Assembly: GCA_016840085.1 (NCBI GenBank)
Contig: JAEOTA010000089.1
Span: 1-10,913 of the forward strand
DNA: 10,913 bases
Direction: 5' to 3'
From: Promethearchaeota archaeon
GTDB taxonomy: Archaea > Asgardarchaeota > Lokiarchaeia > Sigyniarchaeales > SOKP01
The notes under the pieces were generated by a model. The model was given only the letters and a program-made list of their open reading frames with translations. It made no database searches and had not been told where the DNA came from. How positions within the stretch are numbered: the stretch's first letter is position 1; every line of letters begins with the position of its first letter. Below, piece by piece: positions 1 to 10,818 of the stretch. The position numbers were made by a program, and so were the translations under genes.

Positions 1-386
1 AAGTGAGATATCTTCATCCTCATCTATTCAATTATTTTCGAAATGTTATAGCATTGAGGGCAACTGATGCGAGAGATATTGCAGTATTAAAAAACCAGAT
101 GAACTTACAAGAATTACAAGGAACAGGTTATTATAGTTCTAAACGAAATAATACTTACCAAATTGATTACTTAATGAACATGAAAGATGACGAAATAATT
201 GTGAAAAGAAAAGATATTTATCAGCCTTTTCCAGGAATAATACATTATGATAAACTGATTACTACAAATCTTTTCACACATGAGGAAATATTAGCCTATA
301 TGGAAAATCAAGGATATAGATTAAGATTATCAGAGAAAAAAGTCTTAGATAGAGCTAAAAAGACTATTTTTGAAAAAGCATATTGA
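1..386 (+). CDS. C-terminal part of a probable HerA/VirB4/FtsK-superfamily P-loop ATPase-like protein (5'-truncated by the window edge)
   Basis: The frame is open from the window edge. The pattern (xAA)-VRYLHPHLFNYFRNVIALRATDARDIAVLKNQMNL...IDYLMNMKDDEIIVKRKDIYQPFP resembles the segment after the Walker-B/'TQ' motif of HerA/VirB4/TraG-type ATPases ('Q.p..l...v..n....i.fr.....D...l...l.l....l..L..ge.iv......pf'). Walker A/B motifs are not in the window, so this rests on pattern resemblance only. Confidence 0.5.
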   Translation, partial: VRYLHPHLFNYFRNVIALRATDARDIAVLKNQMNLQELQGTGYYSSKRNNTYQIDYLMNMKDDEIIVKRKDIYQPFPGIIHYDKLITTNLFTHEEILAYMENQGYRLRLSEKKVLDRAKKTIFEKAY

Positions 387-2277
387 GAAGTCAACAGACC
401 AAGAGATCTCTAAAAAAATTAAAGAAGAACTACAATTTTTAATTCACCAGTACACCAATAACAATAAGCTTTTAATTAAGCATTTAAAAGAGCAAAATCC
501 GAGATTTGATGATTTTTTTAAAGAATTAAAACGTTCTCTAGCAATCTATAAGGAATATAAACGTAGACACTATGAAAAAAGTTTAATTCCTGAAGGAAAA
601 GGAGTAGTAAAAAAAATAGCTCATCAATTAGTTGAAATACAAAAGAACTACATTTTACAACAAATTTTTAATGAAAATAACCCTGATGTTCAAAATTTAA
701 AGGAGATTTTAAAGGAGAATTTATATAACAATACAATTTTGACCTTAAAAGAAAAAGCAACAATAATAAAAAGCATTCGAAAAGATAAGCTTAATGAAGA
801 AGATAAAAACAAGCTTATATCTGTTTTGAGCAAACTTCCAACAGATGATTTAATTTCTTTATTAGGAAAAGAATATTTCAAGCAAGTCAATTGGCACGAA
901 ATTTCTGATAATTGGGTAATTCAAGTGTATACCGGTACAGGATATAAGACAATTACATTAAATCCTTATCAAGATTGCTCAAAATCAAATCCTCTATACA
1001 TGCATGAAAAGTGGCTAGAATGGGTTTATAACAATAAAGAGTTAAATTTGAATGATCTATCGATAGCTGAAATATGTGGTTTAAACAATAAGACAATCGG
1101 TAATTGGCGTAAAAAATTTAATATTTCAACAAAAATAGTTGGTCATTATTTCAAGAAAGGTTATAAATTTTTAAATATGCCAAAAGAATATAAACACCCT
1201 GAATTAAACCCAATGGGTGATAAAAAAGTTTATAGAGCAGAACATATTATTATGATGGAGGAATATCTCAATAAAACACTTACTCTTAAAGAATTATCTC
1301 TTCACCCTTGTTTAATTAAAAATGATGGTAAATATTATATTAAAAAAAGTTGTGTTGTGCATCACAAAAATCATATTCGTCTGGACAATATAATCAAAAA
1401 TCTGTGGTTGTATAAAAATAAACATGAACATAGTAACTCAAACATTAATATGTGTTTTAGTGACTTGATCAAGCTAGGTCAAATTTTATTTACCAAAGGT
1501 GTTTATTATTTAAATCGTGGTTATGATTACAGGAATTTAAAACCCGAAGAAATTGATAAAGTACGGAAACAAAACGCGTTTGTTGATTATGAAAATTTGG
1601 ATTTGGTGAGAAAAACAATTAAAAATATGGACTGGTCGAGTACGAGTATGAACTGGGATATTGAATATCAAATAAGAAATAATGCTCCGATTGAAAAAAT
1701 ACACCTTAATCCTAATAAGATTTGTTCAAAAGAGAATCCACTATATCGACACAGAGGATGGGTTGAGCGTGTTGTTCGCGATAAGAGATTCTTTCTAACA
1801 GATCGTAGATTAAGTGCATTATGTGGGATTTCAGAAAGATCAGCACGTAGATGGCGTTGGGAGAAATTTAATATTCCAGCAGAGTATTGGGGTTTTGATA
1901 GGTATATAGGTGTAAATAGCAGTGGTAAAAAGATAATTTTTAAGAAGGTGTCCAAAGATTATGGAAATCCTTTTGCCGTAGAAAAAGTAAATTCTGCTAT
2001 AATGCAGGAAAATCGTTATATCATGGAACAGCATTTGGCACAAGATTCCGAATTAAATAAGAAATATCTCATTAATGGCAAGTATTTAAAACCAGAATAT
2101 CTTGTTCATCATATTAACCTCGACAATTTGGACAATAGGTTAGAAAACCTTTATCTATGTAAAAATCATTCTGAACACAATAGGATTCACTCTTCGTTAA
2201 TTAAACTTATTGATGAGTTATTAGGATTAGGACTAATGATTTTCGATAATGGAAAATATTTTTTGGCGTGCCCATAA
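370..2277 (+). CDS. Tandem-duplicated HTH-HNH (HNH_3-like) endonuclease protein with a ~170-aa helical N-terminal region
   Basis: 635-aa ORF with a TTG start (first ATG only at aa 211). Two HNH motifs: YRAEHIIMMEEYL...VVHHKNHIRLDNIIKNLWLYKNKHEHSNSN (aa 288-358) and MQENRYIMEQHL...LVHHINLDNLDNRLENLYLCKNHSEHNRIH (aa 545-607). Each is preceded by an HTH-like segment (LNDLSIAEICGLNNKTIGNWRKKFNI; LTDRRLSALCGISERSARRWRWEKFNI). Confidence 0.85.
   Translation: MKKHIEKSTDQEISKKIKEELQFLIHQYTNNNKLLIKHLKEQNPRFDDFFKELKRSLAIYKEYKRRHYEKSLIPEGKGVVKKIAHQLVEIQKNYILQQIFNENNPDVQNLKEILKENLYNNTILTLKEKATIIKSIRKDKLNEEDKNKLISVLSKLPTDDLISLLGKEYFKQVNWHEISDNWVIQVYTGTGYKTITLNPYQDCSKSNPLYMHEKWLEWVYNNKELNLNDLSIAEICGLNNKTIGNWRKKFNISTKIVGHYFKKGYKFLNMPKEYKHPELNPMGDKKVYRAEHIIMMEEYLNKTLTLKELSLHPCLIKNDGKYYIKKSCVVHHKNHIRLDNIIKNLWLYKNKHEHSNSNINMCFSDLIKLGQILFTKGVYYLNRGYDYRNLKPEEIDKVRKQNAFVDYENLDLVRKTIKNMDWSSTSMNWDIEYQIRNNAPIEKIHLNPNKICSKENPLYRHRGWVERVVRDKRFFLTDRRLSALCGISERSARRWRWEKFNIPAEYWGFDRYIGVNSSGKKIIFKKVSKDYGNPFAVEKVNSAIMQENRYIMEQHLAQDSELNKKYLINGKYLKPEYLVHHINLDNLDNRLENLYLCKNHSEHNRIHSSLIKLIDELLGLGLMIFDNGKYFLACP
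883..1512 (+). repeat. Intragenic protein repeat unit 1 (aa ~172-381) of the HNH protein
   Basis: Aligns by eye with unit 2: VNWHEISDNWVI/MDWSSTSMNWDI, ITLNPYQDCSKSNPLYMHEKW/IHLNPNKICSKENPLYRHRGW, VVHHKN..LDNIIKNL/LVHHIN..LDNRLENL, LIKLGQILFTKGVYYL/LLGLGLMIFDNGKYFL. The period is 249 aa at the NPLY motif. Confidence 0.9.
1624..2265 (+). repeat. Intragenic protein repeat unit 2 (aa ~419-632) of the HNH protein
   Basis: See unit 1. The DNA is diverged at synonymous sites (tgctcaaaatcaaatcctctatac at 976 vs tgttcaaaagagaatccactatat at 1723), which indicates an old duplication. Confidence 0.9.
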
Positions 2278-2310: not shown

Positions 2311-3342
2311 TTAACAATATCGATTTTTTAAATAATCAATAATTCTATCTAAATTTTCTCCAGTTAAGGCGTTAGTTAAATATAAATCCTCATCTCTTAA
2401 ACTAAGTTTTCTTTTTAAATAATCAATTTCAGACGAACTGGAGAGGTCTTTTTTGTTAAATACAACAATCATTTCTATTTTTCCTTCTTTTGTAAAATTT
2501 TCTTTGATCTCTTTAAATAGTTTAATTTGTGAATCGACGGTATAGCCTGATGCGGGAGTAGGATCAAAAATGAAAAGGATTAAATCAGATATTAATCGTA
2601 GAGCTAAGATTGCCTGTAATTCGATACTATTTCTTCTTGAAATTGGTCTGTCTAATATCCCAGGAGTATCCATAATCTGGATTTTTATTGTATCAAAACG
2701 TCCTTCTATTGCTAAATGCCCTAATGCTAATTTCTTTGTAGTGAAGGGATATTCTTGAATTTCAACTTTTTTGTTCGTTGATATATTTTTTACAATGCTA
2801 CTTTTACCTACATTAGGATAACCTGCTACCACTATACATGGTGTCGTGTAATCAATTGAGGGAATTTCCCTCAATCGACCTCTGATATTATTTAGATATT
2901 CAAGATTTTTATTTTGTTTATTTATTATTGATGATATCCTCCCAAAAGCAGCTCTCCGTAATTGATCACCCTCTTTTGGAGATTCAATTCTGTTTAATTT
3001 ATTTAGATATTCTCTTTCAATTTTACTAAGAACGGGTAAAATTCCATTTAATTTACCAAGTGTTAACTTTAATTCATCAATATTGACTAAAATACAAGCT
3101 AGTTCTTTATAAAAATCAGGAATATCGTCTATTATTGGAACATGTTTAATAATATTAAGAATCCTATTTATGAGGGCATTAATAGCAACCTTTATTCGTT
3201 TTGATTCTTTTTTTTTTGCTTTGATGATAATCGGCGCATTTTTAGAAACTTGGGCGGAACTCTTCATAGCCCTTTTGAAAGCTATGTCTAATAACTCAGA
3301 AGATGAAGGTACATGATAAAATTCATCGAAAGGATTCTTCAT
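2311..3342 (-). CDS. nog1: NOG1-family (Obg-like TRAFAC) GTP-binding protein, archaeal type, probably involved in large ribosomal subunit biogenesis
   Basis: G1 GYPNVGKS, G2 YPFTT, G3 DTPG (DTPGILDRP..RN.IE.QAI.AL is typical of NOG1), G4 NKKD, G5-like TNALTG. It also has the NOG1-type N-terminal helical domain (ELLDIAFKRA...PDFYKEL...RRAAFGRISS). Confidence 0.93.
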   Translation of the reverse strand: MKNPFDEFYHVPSSSELLDIAFKRAMKSSAQVSKNAPIIIKAKKKESKRIKVAINALINRILNIIKHVPIIDDIPDFYKELACILVNIDELKLTLGKLNGILPVLSKIEREYLNKLNRIESPKEGDQLRRAAFGRISSIINKQNKNLEYLNNIRGRLREIPSIDYTTPCIVVAGYPNVGKSSIVKNISTNKKVEIQEYPFTTKKLALGHLAIEGRFDTIKIQIMDTPGILDRPISRRNSIELQAILALRLISDLILFIFDPTPASGYTVDSQIKLFKEIKENFTKEGKIEMIVVFNKKDLSSSSEIDYLKRKLSLRDEDLYLTNALTGENLDRIIDYLKNRYC

Positions 3343-4113: not shown

Positions 4114-5202
4114 ATGAAAAAGTTAAAGATTGGCATCTTAGGCGCTACAGGAATGGTTGGTCAAAATTATATCAAATTACTACAAAATCATCCTTGGTTT
4201 GAAATAATTGATGTTGCCGCATCCCCTAGATCTGCAGGTAAACGTTTTAAGGAAGCTGTTAAGACAAAATGGCAAATGGCTATACCAATTCCAGAGGTAA
4301 TTGAGAATTTAATAGTAAGAGATGTTCAAGATTTTGATTCTATTAGTTCAAATTTAGATTTTGTATTTTCTGCAATAAATATGCCAACAAAAGACCAAAT
4401 TAAAGAAGTTGAATTTGAATATGCTCAAAGAGGAATCCCTGTTGTAAGTAATAATTCTGCTCATAGATGGACTCCTGATGTTCCAATGATAATTCCTGAA
4501 ATTAATCATAATCATATAGAGATAATACCACTCCAACAAAAAAACAGGGGTTTTTCTAAGGGTTTCGTTCTAGTTAAGCCAAACTGCTCACTTCAAAGCT
4601 ATCTTACACCCATTTATGCATTAGAAAGAGAAGGATATAAGATAGACAAATTAATAATAACCACTCTTCAAGCCGTTTCTGGTGCAGGATATCCGGGAGT
4701 AGCTTTTTTAGATATAGTAGACAATATAGTTCCGTATATTAGAGGAGAAGAAGAAAAAACAGAAAAAGAACCATTAAAAATTCTAGGAAAAATTGGTGAA
4801 AAGGGTATTATAAATGATGATTCCATTCAAATAAGCTCTACTTGTACCAGAGTTCCAGTCTCTGATGGCCATACAGCTTGTGTAAATTTGAAGTTTAAGG
4901 ATAAAAAACCGATTAAAGATGAGATAATTAAGATATGGAAAGAATTTAAATCAATACCACAAGAATTAGGTTTACCGTTCGCGCCAAAGCAACCAATACT
5001 TTATTTAGAACATATTGATAGACCTCAACCAAAGAAAGATAGAGATAATGATAAAGGAATGGCAATCACAGTTGGGAGATTACGAGAAGATAATATTTTT
5101 GATTTTAAGTTTGTAGCTTTAAGTCATAATACAATAAGAGGAGCTGCGGGTGGAGCCATTTTAAATGCGGAATTGTTAGTAGTGAAAGGGTTTATAAAAT
5201 AA
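4114..5202 (+). CDS. asd: Aspartate-semialdehyde dehydrogenase (archaeal/fungal-type 'asd_EA' architecture)
   Basis: Rossmann motif GILGATGMVG, AAS.RSAGK, SNNSAHR, catalytic Cys in KPNCS (C158), LQAVSGAGYPG, PYI.GEEEK, catalytic His in CTRVPVSDGH, and HNTIRGAAG. Confidence 0.95.
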   Translation: MKKLKIGILGATGMVGQNYIKLLQNHPWFEIIDVAASPRSAGKRFKEAVKTKWQMAIPIPEVIENLIVRDVQDFDSISSNLDFVFSAINMPTKDQIKEVEFEYAQRGIPVVSNNSAHRWTPDVPMIIPEINHNHIEIIPLQQKNRGFSKGFVLVKPNCSLQSYLTPIYALEREGYKIDKLIITTLQAVSGAGYPGVAFLDIVDNIVPYIRGEEEKTEKEPLKILGKIGEKGIINDDSIQISSTCTRVPVSDGHTACVNLKFKDKKPIKDEIIKIWKEFKSIPQELGLPFAPKQPILYLEHIDRPQPKKDRDNDKGMAITVGRLREDNIFDFKFVALSHNTIRGAAGGAILNAELLVVKGFIK

Positions 5203-5602
5203 ATTGTTAGCGTAGTGGCACACTCCAATAAACACCTTAAATTATCTCCACTTATCTTTAATATATCATTAAAATCTTTTTCGTGTTTTAATAATCTACT
5301 TGTAAATTTTATTAATAATATAATATTGCTAGGGGAACAACACTATTCATTAAAAAATGCAATTGTTTCTAGAATTTAAAAAGTGTGTCAATACAATTCT
5401 TATTTCAGATTTATAATAAAAATTAAAATTTAGAATTATATAGTTCATTGATAATTAACTTAAGTATGAATAGAAAAATAAATTATTTAGAGAAAAATAT
5501 TAAAAACACATATTAGTGGGTTATAGAAAAAATAATAAAAAAATCCAAATTATATAAAAAGAAGGAATTAGAATTTGTAGCTAAAAATGAGATGTTCAAT
5601 TA

Positions 5603-6973
5603 ATGGATGAAAAACAAATAATTCATGTTTTACATGAAATTGTAGGGAATGATTTTGTGTCAAACCGACCAGAGGAACTTTTTATATATTCCCAAGATTC
5701 GGGAGCTTCAGAGCCGAGATCTGTCGATTATGTTGTTATGCCCCAAAATATAATTGAAGTTCAAAAGATAGTAAGACTAGCAAATAGGGAAAAAATCCCG
5801 ATAACTCCAATGGGCGGTGGTTTAACACTTAGTGGGTTAGCTATCCCGGTGAAAAAAGGTATTGTCATGGACATGAAAAGGATGGATAAAATTATTGAAA
5901 TTAATGAATTTAGCCGTTATGCGGTATTAGAAGCAGGAGTAACAACTGGAAAAATCAAAGCTTATTTAGATGAAAATCACCCCGATTTACAACCTCCTAT
6001 TCCAGACGCACCGCCTTCTGTCACAGTTGCAGGAAATATGTTAATACATGGTTCTGGGTATTTATCTCAAAAATACGGATGCCATTCTTCTTTGATTAAT
6101 GGTCTTGAAGTTGTAATATCCACCGGAGAAATATGCAGGTTTGGTTCTTGTGCCGTTTCAGATTATTGGTTTTCAAAGGGGCCTATTCCTGATTTAATTG
6201 GGTTATTCACAAGCGCTTTCGGAACAATGGGTATTATCACTAAAATATCCATTAAATTATTTCCAAAGCCAAAATTTAGGGATCTAGTTTTTGGTTTTCT
6301 TGAGGGTTTCTTAGATTTACCAAAAATTATGTCTAAAATAACTTTTACTGAATTAGCTGAAGATATTATGATCGGAAAAAGTGATGTCCAAGAGGCCTTC
6401 AAAAATTTCGCATCCTTAATGGTTTATATTGTTGGAAATTCGAAAGAAGAACTAAACTTTAAGAGAAAGACTATAGAACAGATTTTCGAAGAATATGATG
6501 CTCGAGTTGCACCCCTTTCAGGGAGAATTAGGGATATAATGATGTCACAACCACAATATGGAGCTGCATTAGCAGCAGATTGGAAGAAAGGTGGTGGATT
6601 TGAATATGTTGGGTCGTTTATACCATTAGAAAAAATTCCAGAGGCCATTGAAAAAGGCACAAAAATATCTAAAAAATATGGACTTATTCCTTCTCTTCTC
6701 TGTAGGTTAATTGGTAGAGGTCATGCGGTCATGTTTTCTGTAACTTTTCCTTTTAATCGTGCAAACCCTAAAGATATGATAAATACAAGGAAAGGATTGG
6801 AGGAAACTAATAAAATGATATTGGAAATAGGGGGAATTCCTTGGAAATCAGAATTAGGAGGTCAAAAATTAATAATGGAGAAAATGGATCCCAACTTTAA
6901 AAAAATATTTAAGAATATTCGAAATATATTTGATCCCAACGGAATTATGAATCCGGGGAACTGGGATGATTAG
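5603..6973 (+). CDS. FAD-linked oxidoreductase, VAO/PCMH superfamily (FAD_binding_4 + FAD-oxidase_C; GlcD/D-lactate dehydrogenase-like), substrate unknown
   Basis: Motifs VVMP...EVQKIVRLAN, PMGGGLTLSG, MDMKRMDKIIEI, EAGVT, TVAGN, GLEVV..TGEI, GPIPDL.GLF..AFGTMGIITK and C-terminal FDPNGIMNPG. Confidence 0.9.
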   Translation: MDEKQIIHVLHEIVGNDFVSNRPEELFIYSQDSGASEPRSVDYVVMPQNIIEVQKIVRLANREKIPITPMGGGLTLSGLAIPVKKGIVMDMKRMDKIIEINEFSRYAVLEAGVTTGKIKAYLDENHPDLQPPIPDAPPSVTVAGNMLIHGSGYLSQKYGCHSSLINGLEVVISTGEICRFGSCAVSDYWFSKGPIPDLIGLFTSAFGTMGIITKISIKLFPKPKFRDLVFGFLEGFLDLPKIMSKITFTELAEDIMIGKSDVQEAFKNFASLMVYIVGNSKEELNFKRKTIEQIFEEYDARVAPLSGRIRDIMMSQPQYGAALAADWKKGGGFEYVGSFIPLEKIPEAIEKGTKISKKYGLIPSLLCRLIGRGHAVMFSVTFPFNRANPKDMINTRKGLEETNKMILEIGGIPWKSELGGQKLIMEKMDPNFKKIFKNIRNIFDPNGIMNPGNWDD

Positions 6974-7033
6974 TAGAAAATTATAAGAATAAAATAATTT
7001 TATATTTTGGTATAAAGAAGGTTATATGAATTT

Positions 7034-8611
7034 TTAAAATTCATGCTTATCAATAACAATTGGAAGTAGTAATTTCAAGAATGACATTGTTCCTCTTCTT
7101 TTAATAACCTCATAAATTGGCAGTTCAGGATAAATATAGAAATAATGAGTTTTTTTTAGCATTTTTAACGTTTTTAATTTTAAAAGCGGAGATAATTTTG
7201 TATGTTCTACAATAAAATTATTCATTAAATTTTTAATCAATGATTTATCAAGTATTATAATTGCTGATATAAAACCAAATTCCTCAGAGACATTTGTTCT
7301 AATTAAATCAAGGGAGTTATAAATACCATCAGAAAATATTATTTCTTTTTTAAGAGGTAATAAATTGATCAATGTGCTCTGTTCAATTTCTAATAAAATC
7401 GCATTTTCAGTTGTAGTCTTTAGATAATCCATTTTTTTAAAATTAATCTTCTTATACTTATCTACATCGGTTAGAATGATTAAGACTTTAGAATTTAATC
7501 CAAAATTAGTATCAAGGAAGTTAAAAACTAAATCTGGTATAACCCAATGAGACAATTTTCTAAGATTTAAATTTAGACCGAAAAGACGCAACATAAATCT
7601 TACAAGAGTGTTAAATACAACTGGTCGAGGAATCATATCCCAATATTTTTCAAAGCTACGATATCCAAATAAAATTTTCTGCATTAAAAATTGTAAGTTC
7701 TCTTTTTTCAGAGGAACAGTAAGTTCAGTCAAATCTGATAATAAAGAGATGACGATATTTTGATCTACACAATAAATATTGTCTGTATTTAACTTCTCTT
7801 GAATAAGGTTTAGAGTTTCTTTCTCACTTAATTCATTATCATTAATTCCTAAATCAAGGGGAAGCAACACTCTGAATTTAAATTGAGGTTTTCCTAATTC
7901 AGAGAGGCGATTTTGTAAGTGAAATATTAAATTCATATTTTCTGAGGTAATTAAAAAAGAAATGTTAAATTCAGGCAAAATACCGTAGGATACACCAACA
8001 AGACTTTTTAATTGAACAGTATTTAAAAATAAGGTAAAATCCTTTAAAGATTGGTATAGGGTTGGTTCAGGATAGATAAAAAATAAATCTTGTTCAAATA
8101 ATTTTTGAAGTAATTCCAGAAATTGAAGAATAAAATCATTAATAGATAAATCTTCAATATTTTCACAATATTTATTTATAATATCAATAGCGCTTTCCTT
8201 AAATAGTCGAATAGAAGAGATTCTTACGTCTTTCCTTTTTAATAAATCATCTTGCATTCTATTAAAGATTCTATCAAATTCATCAAAATGTCTATGCTTA
8301 TACTTAACTATATTCAATGGTAATTTTTCAATAGAATCATGAATCCCTGCCTTACTTGTTTCATACAAATATAAGCTGAGAAGTTCCCTCCCATCATCTG
8401 ATATTATTATATCTAAGATGTTGTTTTGGTCACTTAAAAATTTGGGGTACAAGAGTTCAAAAAAATGATATAAAATATGAGCTTTAATTCTGATTGGAGA
8501 TAATGGAATTCTAACTTCTTGTTCCATTAACTTCGATTTATCTAATAAATCAATTTTAAAATTAAAATCAATAATTTTTTTCCAATTAGTATAAAATTGT
8601 TTATTAATCAA
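7034..8611 (-). CDS. Hypothetical protein (525 aa), apparently three diverged alpha/beta repeats
   Basis: Long ORF with a TTG start 4 nt downstream of the DUF362 stop, suggesting an operon. No family recognised. Recurrent motif FFIYPEPTLY / WDMIPRPVVF / FYIYPELPIY. Confidence 0.8.
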   Translation of the reverse strand: MINKQFYTNWKKIIDFNFKIDLLDKSKLMEQEVRIPLSPIRIKAHILYHFFELLYPKFLSDQNNILDIIISDDGRELLSLYLYETSKAGIHDSIEKLPLNIVKYKHRHFDEFDRIFNRMQDDLLKRKDVRISSIRLFKESAIDIINKYCENIEDLSINDFILQFLELLQKLFEQDLFFIYPEPTLYQSLKDFTLFLNTVQLKSLVGVSYGILPEFNISFLITSENMNLIFHLQNRLSELGKPQFKFRVLLPLDLGINDNELSEKETLNLIQEKLNTDNIYCVDQNIVISLLSDLTELTVPLKKENLQFLMQKILFGYRSFEKYWDMIPRPVVFNTLVRFMLRLFGLNLNLRKLSHWVIPDLVFNFLDTNFGLNSKVLIILTDVDKYKKINFKKMDYLKTTTENAILLEIEQSTLINLLPLKKEIIFSDGIYNSLDLIRTNVSEEFGFISAIIILDKSLIKNLMNNFIVEHTKLSPLLKLKTLKMLKKTHYFYIYPELPIYEVIKRRGTMSFLKLLLPIVIDKHEF

Positions 8612-8615
8612 TTAT

Positions 8616-10082
8616 TTAGAGAGCCTCCCATTTCTTCAATTTTTCTTTAATTTTCCCATTAGTCCATATTTTAACAACTTCATTATATAATGTTAAATTA
8701 GGAGCATTACTTTTTCCATAATAATCTACCATCAATTCTATGCATTTAAAAATGTCAGGTGGACATCCTGGCAATTCTAATATTTTTTTATTTATTTTTT
8801 CTTTAATTTTAATTTTTTCTTCAGAATTAGATTTCTTCAAAACTATATCTTTAGCATCATCAATAATACTTTTACCTTTTTCCTTCTTTATCCTCCTAAA
8901 ATCACTATTTTTGGTACTGTTTATTGCACAATTGCCAAATAAAATGATATTTTCTAAATTTTTAGGTTCTGGTGGATTTTCTCCAATTAAAAAAGAGTTA
9001 ATCGGATTATATTTTAAATCTTTAATCATAATTGTTTTCATTAAATTTAACAAATGATAGCTTTGCTTGAAACATCCAGAGCAATATAATCCTGATCCAA
9101 TAAAGAAATTCCTTAAATTAATATCTTGTAGGTTTGGCACGCATAATTTTATATCTAAATTATCATCCATTTCGCCAAAAATCTTAATTTTTGATGTATC
9201 AGTTATACCTATCCCTCTTTTTTCTGCTTCTAATATTAAATCATGACTATTTGTATCAACATTTAGCATCTTTAAAGTAATTAAATCTACAGAAACTGCA
9301 TCATCTCCAATAATTAAAGAGCCTGTTTTTTTTAAATTGGAATCTCTATAAATATAAGGACCAGCTCCTTCTAATAAAAAGAATAAATCGTTTATTGCCA
9401 GATCTGGCTTTTTTATAGAGTAAACGTCTAAAATGTTAGATATTAATTCTTGTTTATATTCATCATGTATAATATAATCTTCTTCTTCAGGTAATCTTTT
9501 ATTAACTTCTTGATTATGTACTGGAACATTTGAATAACAATTTAATAAGGATAAATTACTCTTGAATATTGGATTCACATTAACTTGGTTTATAGAAATA
9601 AATTTATCTGAATCAACTATTACATGAGGTACTAAAAAGTATTTATCATTTACTTCAATCTTGTAAAAATTATTATCTTTAATCTTTTTTAATTGCTCTA
9701 ATTTTATCCCTTTTTGCTCGAAGTAATTACTATTATCTAAAAAGGCTAATTCTGCTCCTAGATTTTTAAAATATTCTTGAAACCCTAATAATTCAGAGAA
9801 TTTTTTCATACAAATCCCCTTAAAAAGAAAACTTCCAACATAGATCTTTTTTGCTCCAGCTTCTTTACAAGAATTAATTATTGCTCTAATTACATCAAAA
9901 TTTGGTATTACTGGAAAACCATTAGGTAAACTTAAATTTATTTTTATAAATACCTGATCTCCTTCTTTAATGAATTTACCTACCCCTCCTAATCTTTCGA
10001 TTCCTTCTAGCACACAATTCTCTGGTGTAGTGCCTTTAATTATAGTAACACTAGCCTTGTCGGATATTAAATGATTTTCCAT
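8616..10082 (-). CDS. DUF362-domain protein with a C-terminal CxxC...GxC...PGCPP Fe-S-type domain (divergent)
   Basis: DUF362-like features: LGGVGKFIKEGDQVFIKINL, AGAKKIYVG, KPDLAIND..LLEGAGP, GDDAVSVD, AEKRGIG. C-terminal CSGC (C334/C337), GNCA (C385) and LPGCPP (C440). Confidence 0.85.
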   Translation of the reverse strand: MENHLISDKASVTIIKGTTPENCVLEGIERLGGVGKFIKEGDQVFIKINLSLPNGFPVIPNFDVIRAIINSCKEAGAKKIYVGSFLFKGICMKKFSELLGFQEYFKNLGAELAFLDNSNYFEQKGIKLEQLKKIKDNNFYKIEVNDKYFLVPHVIVDSDKFISINQVNVNPIFKSNLSLLNCYSNVPVHNQEVNKRLPEEEDYIIHDEYKQELISNILDVYSIKKPDLAINDLFFLLEGAGPYIYRDSNLKKTGSLIIGDDAVSVDLITLKMLNVDTNSHDLILEAEKRGIGITDTSKIKIFGEMDDNLDIKLCVPNLQDINLRNFFIGSGLYCSGCFKQSYHLLNLMKTIMIKDLKYNPINSFLIGENPPEPKNLENIILFGNCAINSTKNSDFRRIKKEKGKSIIDDAKDIVLKKSNSEEKIKIKEKINKKILELPGCPPDIFKCIELMVDYYGKSNAPNLTLYNEVVKIWTNGKIKEKLKKWEAL

Positions 10083-10158
10083 TATAAATAATTATACAAA
10101 ATTCTTTTATTATAGTAAATTAGTTTAAAATTAATTAAATTTTTAGTTAGTGATATAA
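10083..10158. promoter_or_regulatory. Compact divergent promoter region (DUF362 operon / pantothenate kinase)
   Basis: 76-bp, almost pure A/T spacer between head-to-head ATGs. TATA-like runs: TTTAAAA at 10124-10130 (+) and TATAATAAAA at about 10105-10114 (-). Confidence 0.4.
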
Positions 10159-10818
10159 ATGGCTTTAGAAAACTTAATAAAACTTCCCTTAGAAGAACAT
10201 TTATCTTATTTCCCATCATCAACCGTTGGAATCGATATTGGTCAGAGCCTGAGTAAATTAGTATGCGTAAAGGATAATAAATTACATTTATCAATTAATC
10301 CTACTGAAAATAATCATTTAAAAATTAAGGAATTTATAGAGTCTAAAAAGAATATATTTACAAACTTTAATTTTACAGGAGGAAAAAGTTATGGTTTATA
10401 TCAACAATATTCAGGAGATTTCAACACTCGATTAATAAATGAATTTGAAGCGAATGTTAAAGGCGTTGAGATTTTCTATCGAATAGAAAAAAATAAAGAC
10501 TTACCACCATCATTAGTTGTTTCAGTAGGTACTGGCACCTCAATAGTTTTGAAAAAAGATATGTTTGAACATCTAGGGGGAACAGCTATGGGAGGTGGGC
10601 TCTTTATGGGGTTAATTAAAGCTTTATTCAACATAAATGATTTTCAAGAAGCTATAGATTTAGCCAAAAAAGGAAATAGATATAATGTTGATTTAAAAGT
10701 TTCTGATATATATGATCCTGAAGATGAAAGAGTTGATTTATTATTCAGGGAGTTTACAGCAGCATCACTGGGAAAGATTGATCTAAATTTTAATATGAAT
10801 AATTTGGATAATTTTTAA
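10159..10818 (+). pseudogene. coaW: Type II pantothenate kinase (fumble/CoaW-like, ASKHA fold), C-terminally truncated
   Basis: Motifs GIDIGQSLSK (phosphate-1), FTGGKS, INEFEANVKG (catalytic Glu95), VSVGTGTSI, HLGGTAMGGGLFMGL, GNRYNVDLKVSDIY and TAASLGK. The ORF stops at 219 aa right after AASLGK...NNLDNF. It lacks the following 'eDi..sl...i..nig' helix and the 'vf.Ggf'/'gAlGA' motifs expected in full-length PanK-II. Confidence 0.75.

Follow-up and report, generated by a model that had tools for sequence, protein, structure and literature searches.

A double HTH-HNH endonuclease gene and a recoded NOG1 3' end: a probable homing element of Promethearchaeota

The stretch of DNA described here (the window, 10,913 nucleotides (nt) in full) comprises positions 1 to 10,913 of contig JAEOTA010000089.1 (GenBank assembly GCA_016840085.1) of a Promethearchaeota archaeon. 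Its first part holds a gene for a protein with two helix-turn-helix (HTH)-HNH endonuclease units in one chain, which faces the 3' end of the gene for the GTPase NOG1 (Table 1). Here we present the features of this protein and of its family, together with a comparison of NOG1 alleles with and without the nuclease gene, and weigh the proposal that the nuclease gene and the adjoining end of NOG1 form a homing element. Where working labels are used, G000 is the assembly of the window organism.

Table 1. Features of the window from its first bases to NOG1 (+, forward strand; -, reverse strand)
Feature	Positions	Strand	Remarks
ATPase-like gene fragment, 3'-truncated, membrane-anchored	3..386	+	Matches residues 878-1001 of a 1261-residue paralog; passenger; joins the leader at ~365
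Leader, swappable, helical	365..867	+	Residues ~1-167; 85-93% DNA identity to four paralogous nuclease genes of the same genome with other end domains
Double HTH-HNH endonuclease gene	370..2277	+	635 residues; TTG start inferred
Unit 1	868..1545	+	W-rich N-terminal part, HTH, beta-hairpin, HNH core, helix-hairpin tail
HTH of unit 1	1045..1122	+	Recognition helix kept within target clade, differs between clades
HNH core 1	1357..1437	+	H331, H332, N340, N344, H354
Inter-unit linker	1546..1614	+	~23 residues
Unit 2	1615..2274	+	Architecture as in unit 1
HTH of unit 2	1795..1866	+	
HNH core 2	2104..2190	+	H580, H581, N589, N593, H603
NOG1 (GTPase), intact	2311..3342	-	Convergent to the nuclease gene, 33-bp gap
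Putative element-borne replacement 3' end of NOG1	2311..2690	-	Inner boundary approximate; mapped in relatives at NOG1 nt ~645-667
Putative immune (altered) version of the predicted target site	2641..2667	-	NOG1 nt 676-702; Met234 ATG changed to ATT; Arg codon AGA

The double HTH-HNH protein and its family

Unit 1 of the window protein (residues ~167-392) aligns to unit 2 (residues ~416-635) with 33% identity over 227 residues (E 3e-28), and the HH pairs (331-332 and 580-581) and the NPLY motifs (207 and 456) of the two units are each exactly 249 residues apart; residues 1-167 lie outside the repeat. The TTG start of the open reading frame (ORF) overlaps the stop codon of the upstream frame. 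Pfam HNH_3 matches two stretches of the protein (E 4e-9, 36.3 bits against a cut-off of 24.8), Pfam HTH models match residues 232-251 and 477-496, and 25 database proteins, the window protein included, align to the repeat module. A first-pass annotation, made from the DNA letters, had proposed a complete endonuclease unit duplicated in tandem, with both HNH cores retained and no named family for the architecture. The whole-unit duplication is real, all five core residues are present in each unit, and neither the Pfam and NCBIfam searches nor the literature searched supplied a family name for the architecture. NCBIfam gave no meaningful match for the window protein, and a sequence search of the PDB returned only a His-tag artefact.

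The structural check suggested at the same time agreed with the duplication: in an AlphaFold2 model built on 23 homologs (predicted local distance difference test (pLDDT) 89, predicted template modelling score (pTM) 0.70) the order of secondary-structure elements is identical in both units. I-HmuI came first in three structure searches, as the top match of unit 2 within the full model (Z 4.7, root-mean-square deviation 2.5, 74 residues) and of the unit 1 catalytic domain alone (Z 5.2, root-mean-square deviation 4.0, 78 residues); other HNH nucleases came next in the single-unit search, and the Foldseek E value was 1.2. Foldseek against the PDB found nothing at E<=0.001 with either model, which is no argument for a new fold. 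H332 and H581 are taken as the general bases by motif analogy with H75 of I-HmuI (PMC3384342). The last histidine of unit 2, H607, is kept in only 35 of the 65 family members, so its absence from unit 1 is no defect.

The family set consists of 65 double modules, obtained after removal of sequences at least 90% identical. First units and second units form separate clades in a FastTree phylogeny (support 97), and one ancestral duplication therefore suffices. All five core residues are intact in both units in 57 members, one core is altered in eight, and each core residue is found, per unit, in 62-65 of the 65. The spacing from HH to HH is 241-262 residues among full-length members, and the N-termini range from ~10 to more than 500 residues. 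Within the NOG1 clade the ratio of nonsynonymous to synonymous substitution rates is 0.17-0.45 for unit 1 and 0.17-0.35 for unit 2; purifying selection is indicated for both.

Regarding distribution, full-length two-unit matches in a search of genome contigs came from Promethearchaeota records, one record labelled Odinarchaeota and unnamed archaea, and the named two-unit proteins include one with a Thorarchaeota label. Of the proposed survey of Asgard and virus genomes for two-unit proteins, the Asgard side thus yielded a Promethearchaeota family; the viral side was negative, phage genomes and viral contigs giving single-unit matches only in the searches run. The ESM Atlas held only HNH_3 clusters of single-unit size. 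A single-unit form as the norm was rejected (most proteins with a single complete unit also contain a piece of another or seem truncated), as was a three-unit version as the rule (an internal partial repeat with a degenerate core occurs only in L098 and L107). Internal partial repeats or a shorter core-to-core spacing were seen in L098, L107, P0054, P0056 and P0062, and probably reflect recombination between units or assembly errors. The N-terminal HTH part of a unit is also joined to other C-termini (P0087, P0093, P0089 and L110-L113); P0087 and P0093 hold repeated Cys-rich HNH-like domains, so multi-nuclease chains recur in such elements.

Across the family the nuclease clades match insertion loci, namely NOG1, a thiolase region, a MoxR-like gene, a geranylgeranyl-reductase-like gene, a 229-residue ORF, an FAD-oxidase/Fe-S pair and a peptidase (NOG1, thiolase and MoxR apart, the labels were assigned by reading adjacent sequences). 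In both units the HTH recognition helices, the hairpins and the loops are constant within locus clades and different between them, as expected if both units read the target. Judged by these sequences, both units look functional and sequence-reading.

NOG1 alleles, passenger genes and the shared leader

The closest homologs of the window protein are 63-73% identical over the module, and all eight whose neighbourhood was read and could be assigned, one of them in G067, face the 3' end of NOG1 in convergent orientation. Most genomes of the genus have NOG1 overlapping the start of a hydantoinase-family gene and no nuclease in between; in 46 genomes of the genus there is no double-HNH gene up to 1.5 kb from NOG1 (one further genome is indeterminate). 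Minimal elements (L117 and L118) consist of the nuclease gene alone, and those of L021, L022 and L028 carry passenger genes. In genome G067 NOG1 is 97% identical to that of the window and the nuclease junction is the same.

Trees of 56 NOG1 alleles, nine of them occupied, differ between the two parts of the gene. In the tree of nt 1-600 the occupied alleles need 8 changes and a single clade is rejected (approximately unbiased test, p 5e-55); each half of this 5' part needs 5-6 changes, a single clade again being rejected (p<1e-6). The tree of nt 661 to the end needs 1 change (Shimodaira-Hasegawa-like approximate likelihood-ratio support 96), and 2 changes when the motif columns described below are omitted or only third positions are used, a single clade not being rejected (p 0.33-0.63).

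Pairwise comparison places the switch at nt ~645-667 in L021 and L117. Occupied L021 is 85-100% identical to empty L039, and occupied L117 95-100% identical to empty L129, up to nt ~630, after which identity falls to 52-80% in both pairs; past the switch the two recipients are 83-97% identical to each other. L028, L088, L117, L120 and G067 each have a displaced, diverged NOG1 tail on the far side of the element. The tail of L028 (321 bp, 83% identical) starts within the motif, at nt ~678, and has retained the ATG; that of G067 is 85% identical to empty kin and 74% identical to the working copy of its own genome. The duplicated-tail pattern recurs at the MoxR-like locus (L026, L101) and at the 229-residue ORF (L068). 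Three empty alleles (L031, L032 and L033) have the same codons as the occupied alleles at nt 667-669 and are placed as their sisters in the 3' tree; by this comparison the tail of the element probably derives from their host lineage, which includes the window organism.

A 27-bp candidate target motif, ACnCCnGGnATnYTnGAYMGnNCnATG, lies at NOG1 nt 676-702 (window 2667-2641). It is present in 47 of 47 alleles without the nuclease and in none of the nine occupied alleles, although it was derived from the same alleles, so that the 47 of 47 describes the motif and is no test of it; one of the 47 has only 44 bp of downstream sequence. The 4.7-Mb genome of the window organism holds no match to it. G702 is invariant in the 47 nuclease-less alleles and lost in all nine occupied ones, in three different ways, one of which is a 3-bp deletion in a conserved GTPase segment. 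In the commonest immune tail (L021, L022, L088, L117 and L118) the GTPase segment after the G3 Asp is altered, with Thr changed to Cys and one codon deleted, a possible cost to the host protein. The site also holds a GAT-N3-CC direct repeat with copies 18 bp apart, both of which are altered in the commonest immune type (nt 676-677 and 692-702). In L028 NOG1 is apparently frameshifted near codon 113 (L028:13207-13560 and 12512-13057), by error or as a real lesion.

The leader of the window gene (positions 365-867) is common to four other genes of the same genome, at least one of which ends, by motif, in a zinc-finger/PD-(D/E)xK-like nuclease; the window gene is therefore chimeric, with the double module joined to a shared leader. 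Three long leader-sharing genes (G000 C13:14323-17211, C81:70681-74400 and C4:1-4185) all lie at contig ends, the one on C13 with an in-frame TAA stop, and the shared leader probably breaks the assembly. C81 also carries a decayed W-rich/HTH remnant of a unit with two stops (62864-63121).

The 1261-residue ATPase-like paralog is encoded at G000 C50:22699-26484, and N-terminal parts of this family stand at the ends of C20 and C69, which might be the continuation of the window fragment. An obligatory ATPase-nuclease system was rejected: the ATPase gene is truncated in the window, and most NOG1 loci lack it. The nuclease gene has no flanking DNA repeats in the window, and promoter and terminator scans of the window stayed at chance level (the consensus is bacterial and the host archaeal). 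Beyond NOG1, window 4114-10818 is syntenic with kin and encodes an aspartate-semialdehyde dehydrogenase, an FAD-linked oxidase, a 525-residue protein without a Pfam match, a DUF362 protein and a pantothenate kinase (Fumble); the oxidase gene is missing at this spot in L021 and L022.

A comparable arrangement was seen elsewhere in the same genome (G000 C85:14876-28619), where a paralog with the same leader and a zinc-finger/PD-(D/E)xK-like C-terminus is convergent to the 3' end of SMC. A copy of the SMC end (189 bp, 79% identical) lies ~9 kb from that 3' end, the passengers are DUF3800-like, phosphoesterase-like and PIN-like (assigned by reading), and no integrase is evident. Four-gene passenger blocks of similar sizes, with the PIN-like gene last, occur at L021:5173-9067 and G000 C85:23987-27936, which suggests cargo exchange between NOG1 and SMC elements; only the first gene is similar, by eye.

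A homing element and its alternatives

We consider it very probable, from sequence comparison, that the double HTH-HNH gene and the recoded 3' third of NOG1 constitute a free-standing, integrase-free homing element of Promethearchaeota (Lokiarchaeia). The gene is optional at a fixed locus at which kin have empty alleles, its flanks show one-way co-conversion and, on the inferred site, its own allele lacks the candidate motif. The first-pass annotation had offered a selfish homing element or a defence or toxin effector as roles of the protein; the former is strongly supported by the target gene NOG1, the candidate site, the empty and chimeric alleles and the displaced tails, and the latter found no support, as set out below.

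In the proposed mechanism, a chromosome that bears the element would meet an empty one, and the nuclease would bind the conserved site at NOG1 nt ~676-702 and cut in or near it. Repair from the donor would then produce a chimeric NOG1 with a host 5' part and an element 3' part that lacks the site, and the same repair would copy in the nuclease gene plus any passenger DNA. The native tail would be stranded at the opposite end of the element; the start of the next gene overlaps it, which is why it often persists there. We infer from the sequences that the protein itself cuts, where it cuts and that both units act. Within the homing model, the cleavage mode that we favour, if only by a little, is that each unit nicks one strand, so that one chain makes a double-strand break, staggered as the first-pass annotation proposed; same-strand nicking and a division of binding and cutting between the units are, taken together, a plausible but less probable pair of modes.

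A broader proposal, which falls just short of an even chance in our judgement, is that a single chain with two independently retargetable HTH-HNH heads nicks opposite strands of a long asymmetric site, as an HNH counterpart of the monomeric LAGLIDADG enzymes that has been retargeted to at least seven loci and serves as the integration module of integrase-free, cargo-carrying Asgard elements. The ATPase passengers as a clue to cell-to-cell DNA transfer are a lead only.

Several observations weigh against the homing interpretation or limit it. Since the nine occupied alleles fall into only about three independent immune types, their complete lack of the motif overstates independence. The window allele is more mosaic than those of L021 and L117, being closest to empty kin at nt 660-850 and to the other occupied alleles only from nt 850 to the end. 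A displaced tail was not detected at L021 (within 10 kb) or at L118. The assembly of the window element stops short of its far end, the rest of the G000 assembly yielded neither a hydantoinase gene nor a NOG1 fragment, and the displaced tail attributed to the window element was taken from the near-identical genome G067, in which it is on a contig of its own. I-HmuI is a weak structural match (Z 4.7-5.2), and unit 2 of the window copy has Asn548 at a position that is His in 57 of the 65 members, which may weaken this unit.

The alternative that survives best, and to which we accord a substantial though clearly minor probability, retains a homing element but makes its enzyme a nickase or a same-strand double nickase, in which the duplication serves to extend the recognised site, either with one unit acting chiefly as a binder or with both nicking a single strand. 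Two units arranged head to tail and joined by a short linker may contact DNA as direct repeats, and the GAT-N3-CC repeat in the site would suit this, although it is only suggestive and also fits two Asp-x-Pro codon pairs. The eight members with a change in one core point the same way, and T4 MobE homes with a single nick, so one nick can drive homing (PMC2790892). A unit that only binds should, however, lose its catalytic residues, and across a deep radiation both cores are fully kept in 57 of 65 members; displaced tails with their start at the site likewise fit a true break.

That the nuclease is cargo of an integrative element, which would use the NOG1 3' end as its attachment site through an integrase or homologous recombination, we regard as improbable. 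Duplicated gene ends are typical of integrative elements, and some copies do carry ATPase or other passenger genes. Yet no integrase is recognisable in the fully bounded element of L028 or in the minimal ones of L117 and L118 (the window element continues past the contig end). The one constant gene is that of the nuclease, which invariably adjoins the new tail, and an integrase would not account for the disappearance, from all occupied alleles, of a motif that is otherwise invariant.

Slightly less probable still is a polymorphic toxin or defence effector, composed of a variable leader and a nuclease tip and exported or activated by a neighbouring ATPase. The leaders do vary widely and are exchanged among different nuclease C-termini, and ATPase genes precede some copies. 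Against this, PADLOC gave no match (absence from its library excludes no role), no immunity gene lies downstream, the gene past the stop being NOG1 on the other strand, and the ATPase has the truncation and patchy occurrence described above. The two HTH domains track the target locus, and gene conversion around the nuclease gene is site-specific and one-way. A collapsed or chimeric contig is very improbable: the gene does lie at a contig end with a leader 93% identical to another contig end, but the units are only 33% identical, and the two-unit protein and the NOG1 junction recur in many independent genomes. The duplication is secure, and the junction of leader and ATPase at ~365 is a putative one, as assembled.

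Relation to known systems and significance

The homing element proposed here most resembles, in its traces, two eukaryotic systems. WHO elements of Torulaspora and Lachancea (PMC7282813) give FBA1 a new 3' end, with discordant trees and leftover fragments as the traces; shared features are the free-standing nuclease beside its target, a resistant replacement 3' end, discordant 5' and 3' trees and displaced 3' fragments. WHO proteins, however, are intein-related LAGLIDADG-zinc-finger proteins that home in diploid meiosis and target FBA1, whereas the window element is a double HNH in an archaeon, lies convergent to NOG1, moves between species and belongs to a family whose clades use many loci. 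In hybrid genes of fungal mitochondria (Allomyces atp6; Glomus atp6, atp9, cox2 and nad3; PMC3630166) an endonuclease ORF likewise brings a foreign C-terminus and the displaced native tail resembles empty kin, but the enzymes are LAGLIDADG or GIY-YIG in organelles rather than HNH on a prokaryotic chromosome. With another nuclease, host and target, the window element belongs to neither group.

Among HNH enzymes, I-HmuI (PDB 1u3e) and T4 MobE (PMC2790892, PMC3384342) share the HNH_3 core with a DNA-binding hairpin and HTH, and intron-free homing with co-conversion. They have one active site per chain, and MobE nicks, whereas the window protein has two complete cores; here it is the entire unit, with the HTH ahead of the HNH, that is duplicated, and the native tail is often left behind. 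Monomeric LAGLIDADG enzymes (PMC3943268) also hold two nuclease domains per chain from one ancestral duplication, but their fold is unrelated and their pseudo-two-fold packing is known; the window protein is likened to them by sequence, the arrangement of the units excepted.

Two HNH domains per chain are not unique, since they are also reported for a giant-virus ORF (DSLLAV1 ORF140; PMC11172284) and occur in P0148 and P0124, where only the catalytic HNH_3 domain is doubled, behind other DNA-binding repeats; we found no characterisation of their activity. The novelty is the doubling of the whole HTH and HNH unit, which was found nowhere else in the searches run. Papers on mobile elements of Asgard archaea report viral proteins that resemble PacI and a single element whose homing-endonuclease-like gene lies next to 16S rRNA, which are not of this family, and the literature searched (few subscription papers) held no paper on the double HTH-HNH architecture or on such elements in archaea. 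On the homing interpretation, an undescribed double-unit HNH architecture serves a known homing strategy in a new domain of life.

The alleles described here are genomic evidence that homing can proceed by replacing the end of a gene on a prokaryotic chromosome, across species, at a conserved single-copy gene for a ribosome-biogenesis GTPase. The last third of NOG1 follows the element, though such genes are assumed to be inherited vertically, which calls for caution in phylogenies that use them. A speculative architecture is now directly testable, with a candidate substrate and a natural resistant allele. If the two heads do cut opposite strands, the family would offer natural pairs of DNA-reading units matched to different targets, could help to show how HNH nickases become double-strand cutters, and could be a source of modular rare-cutting enzymes.

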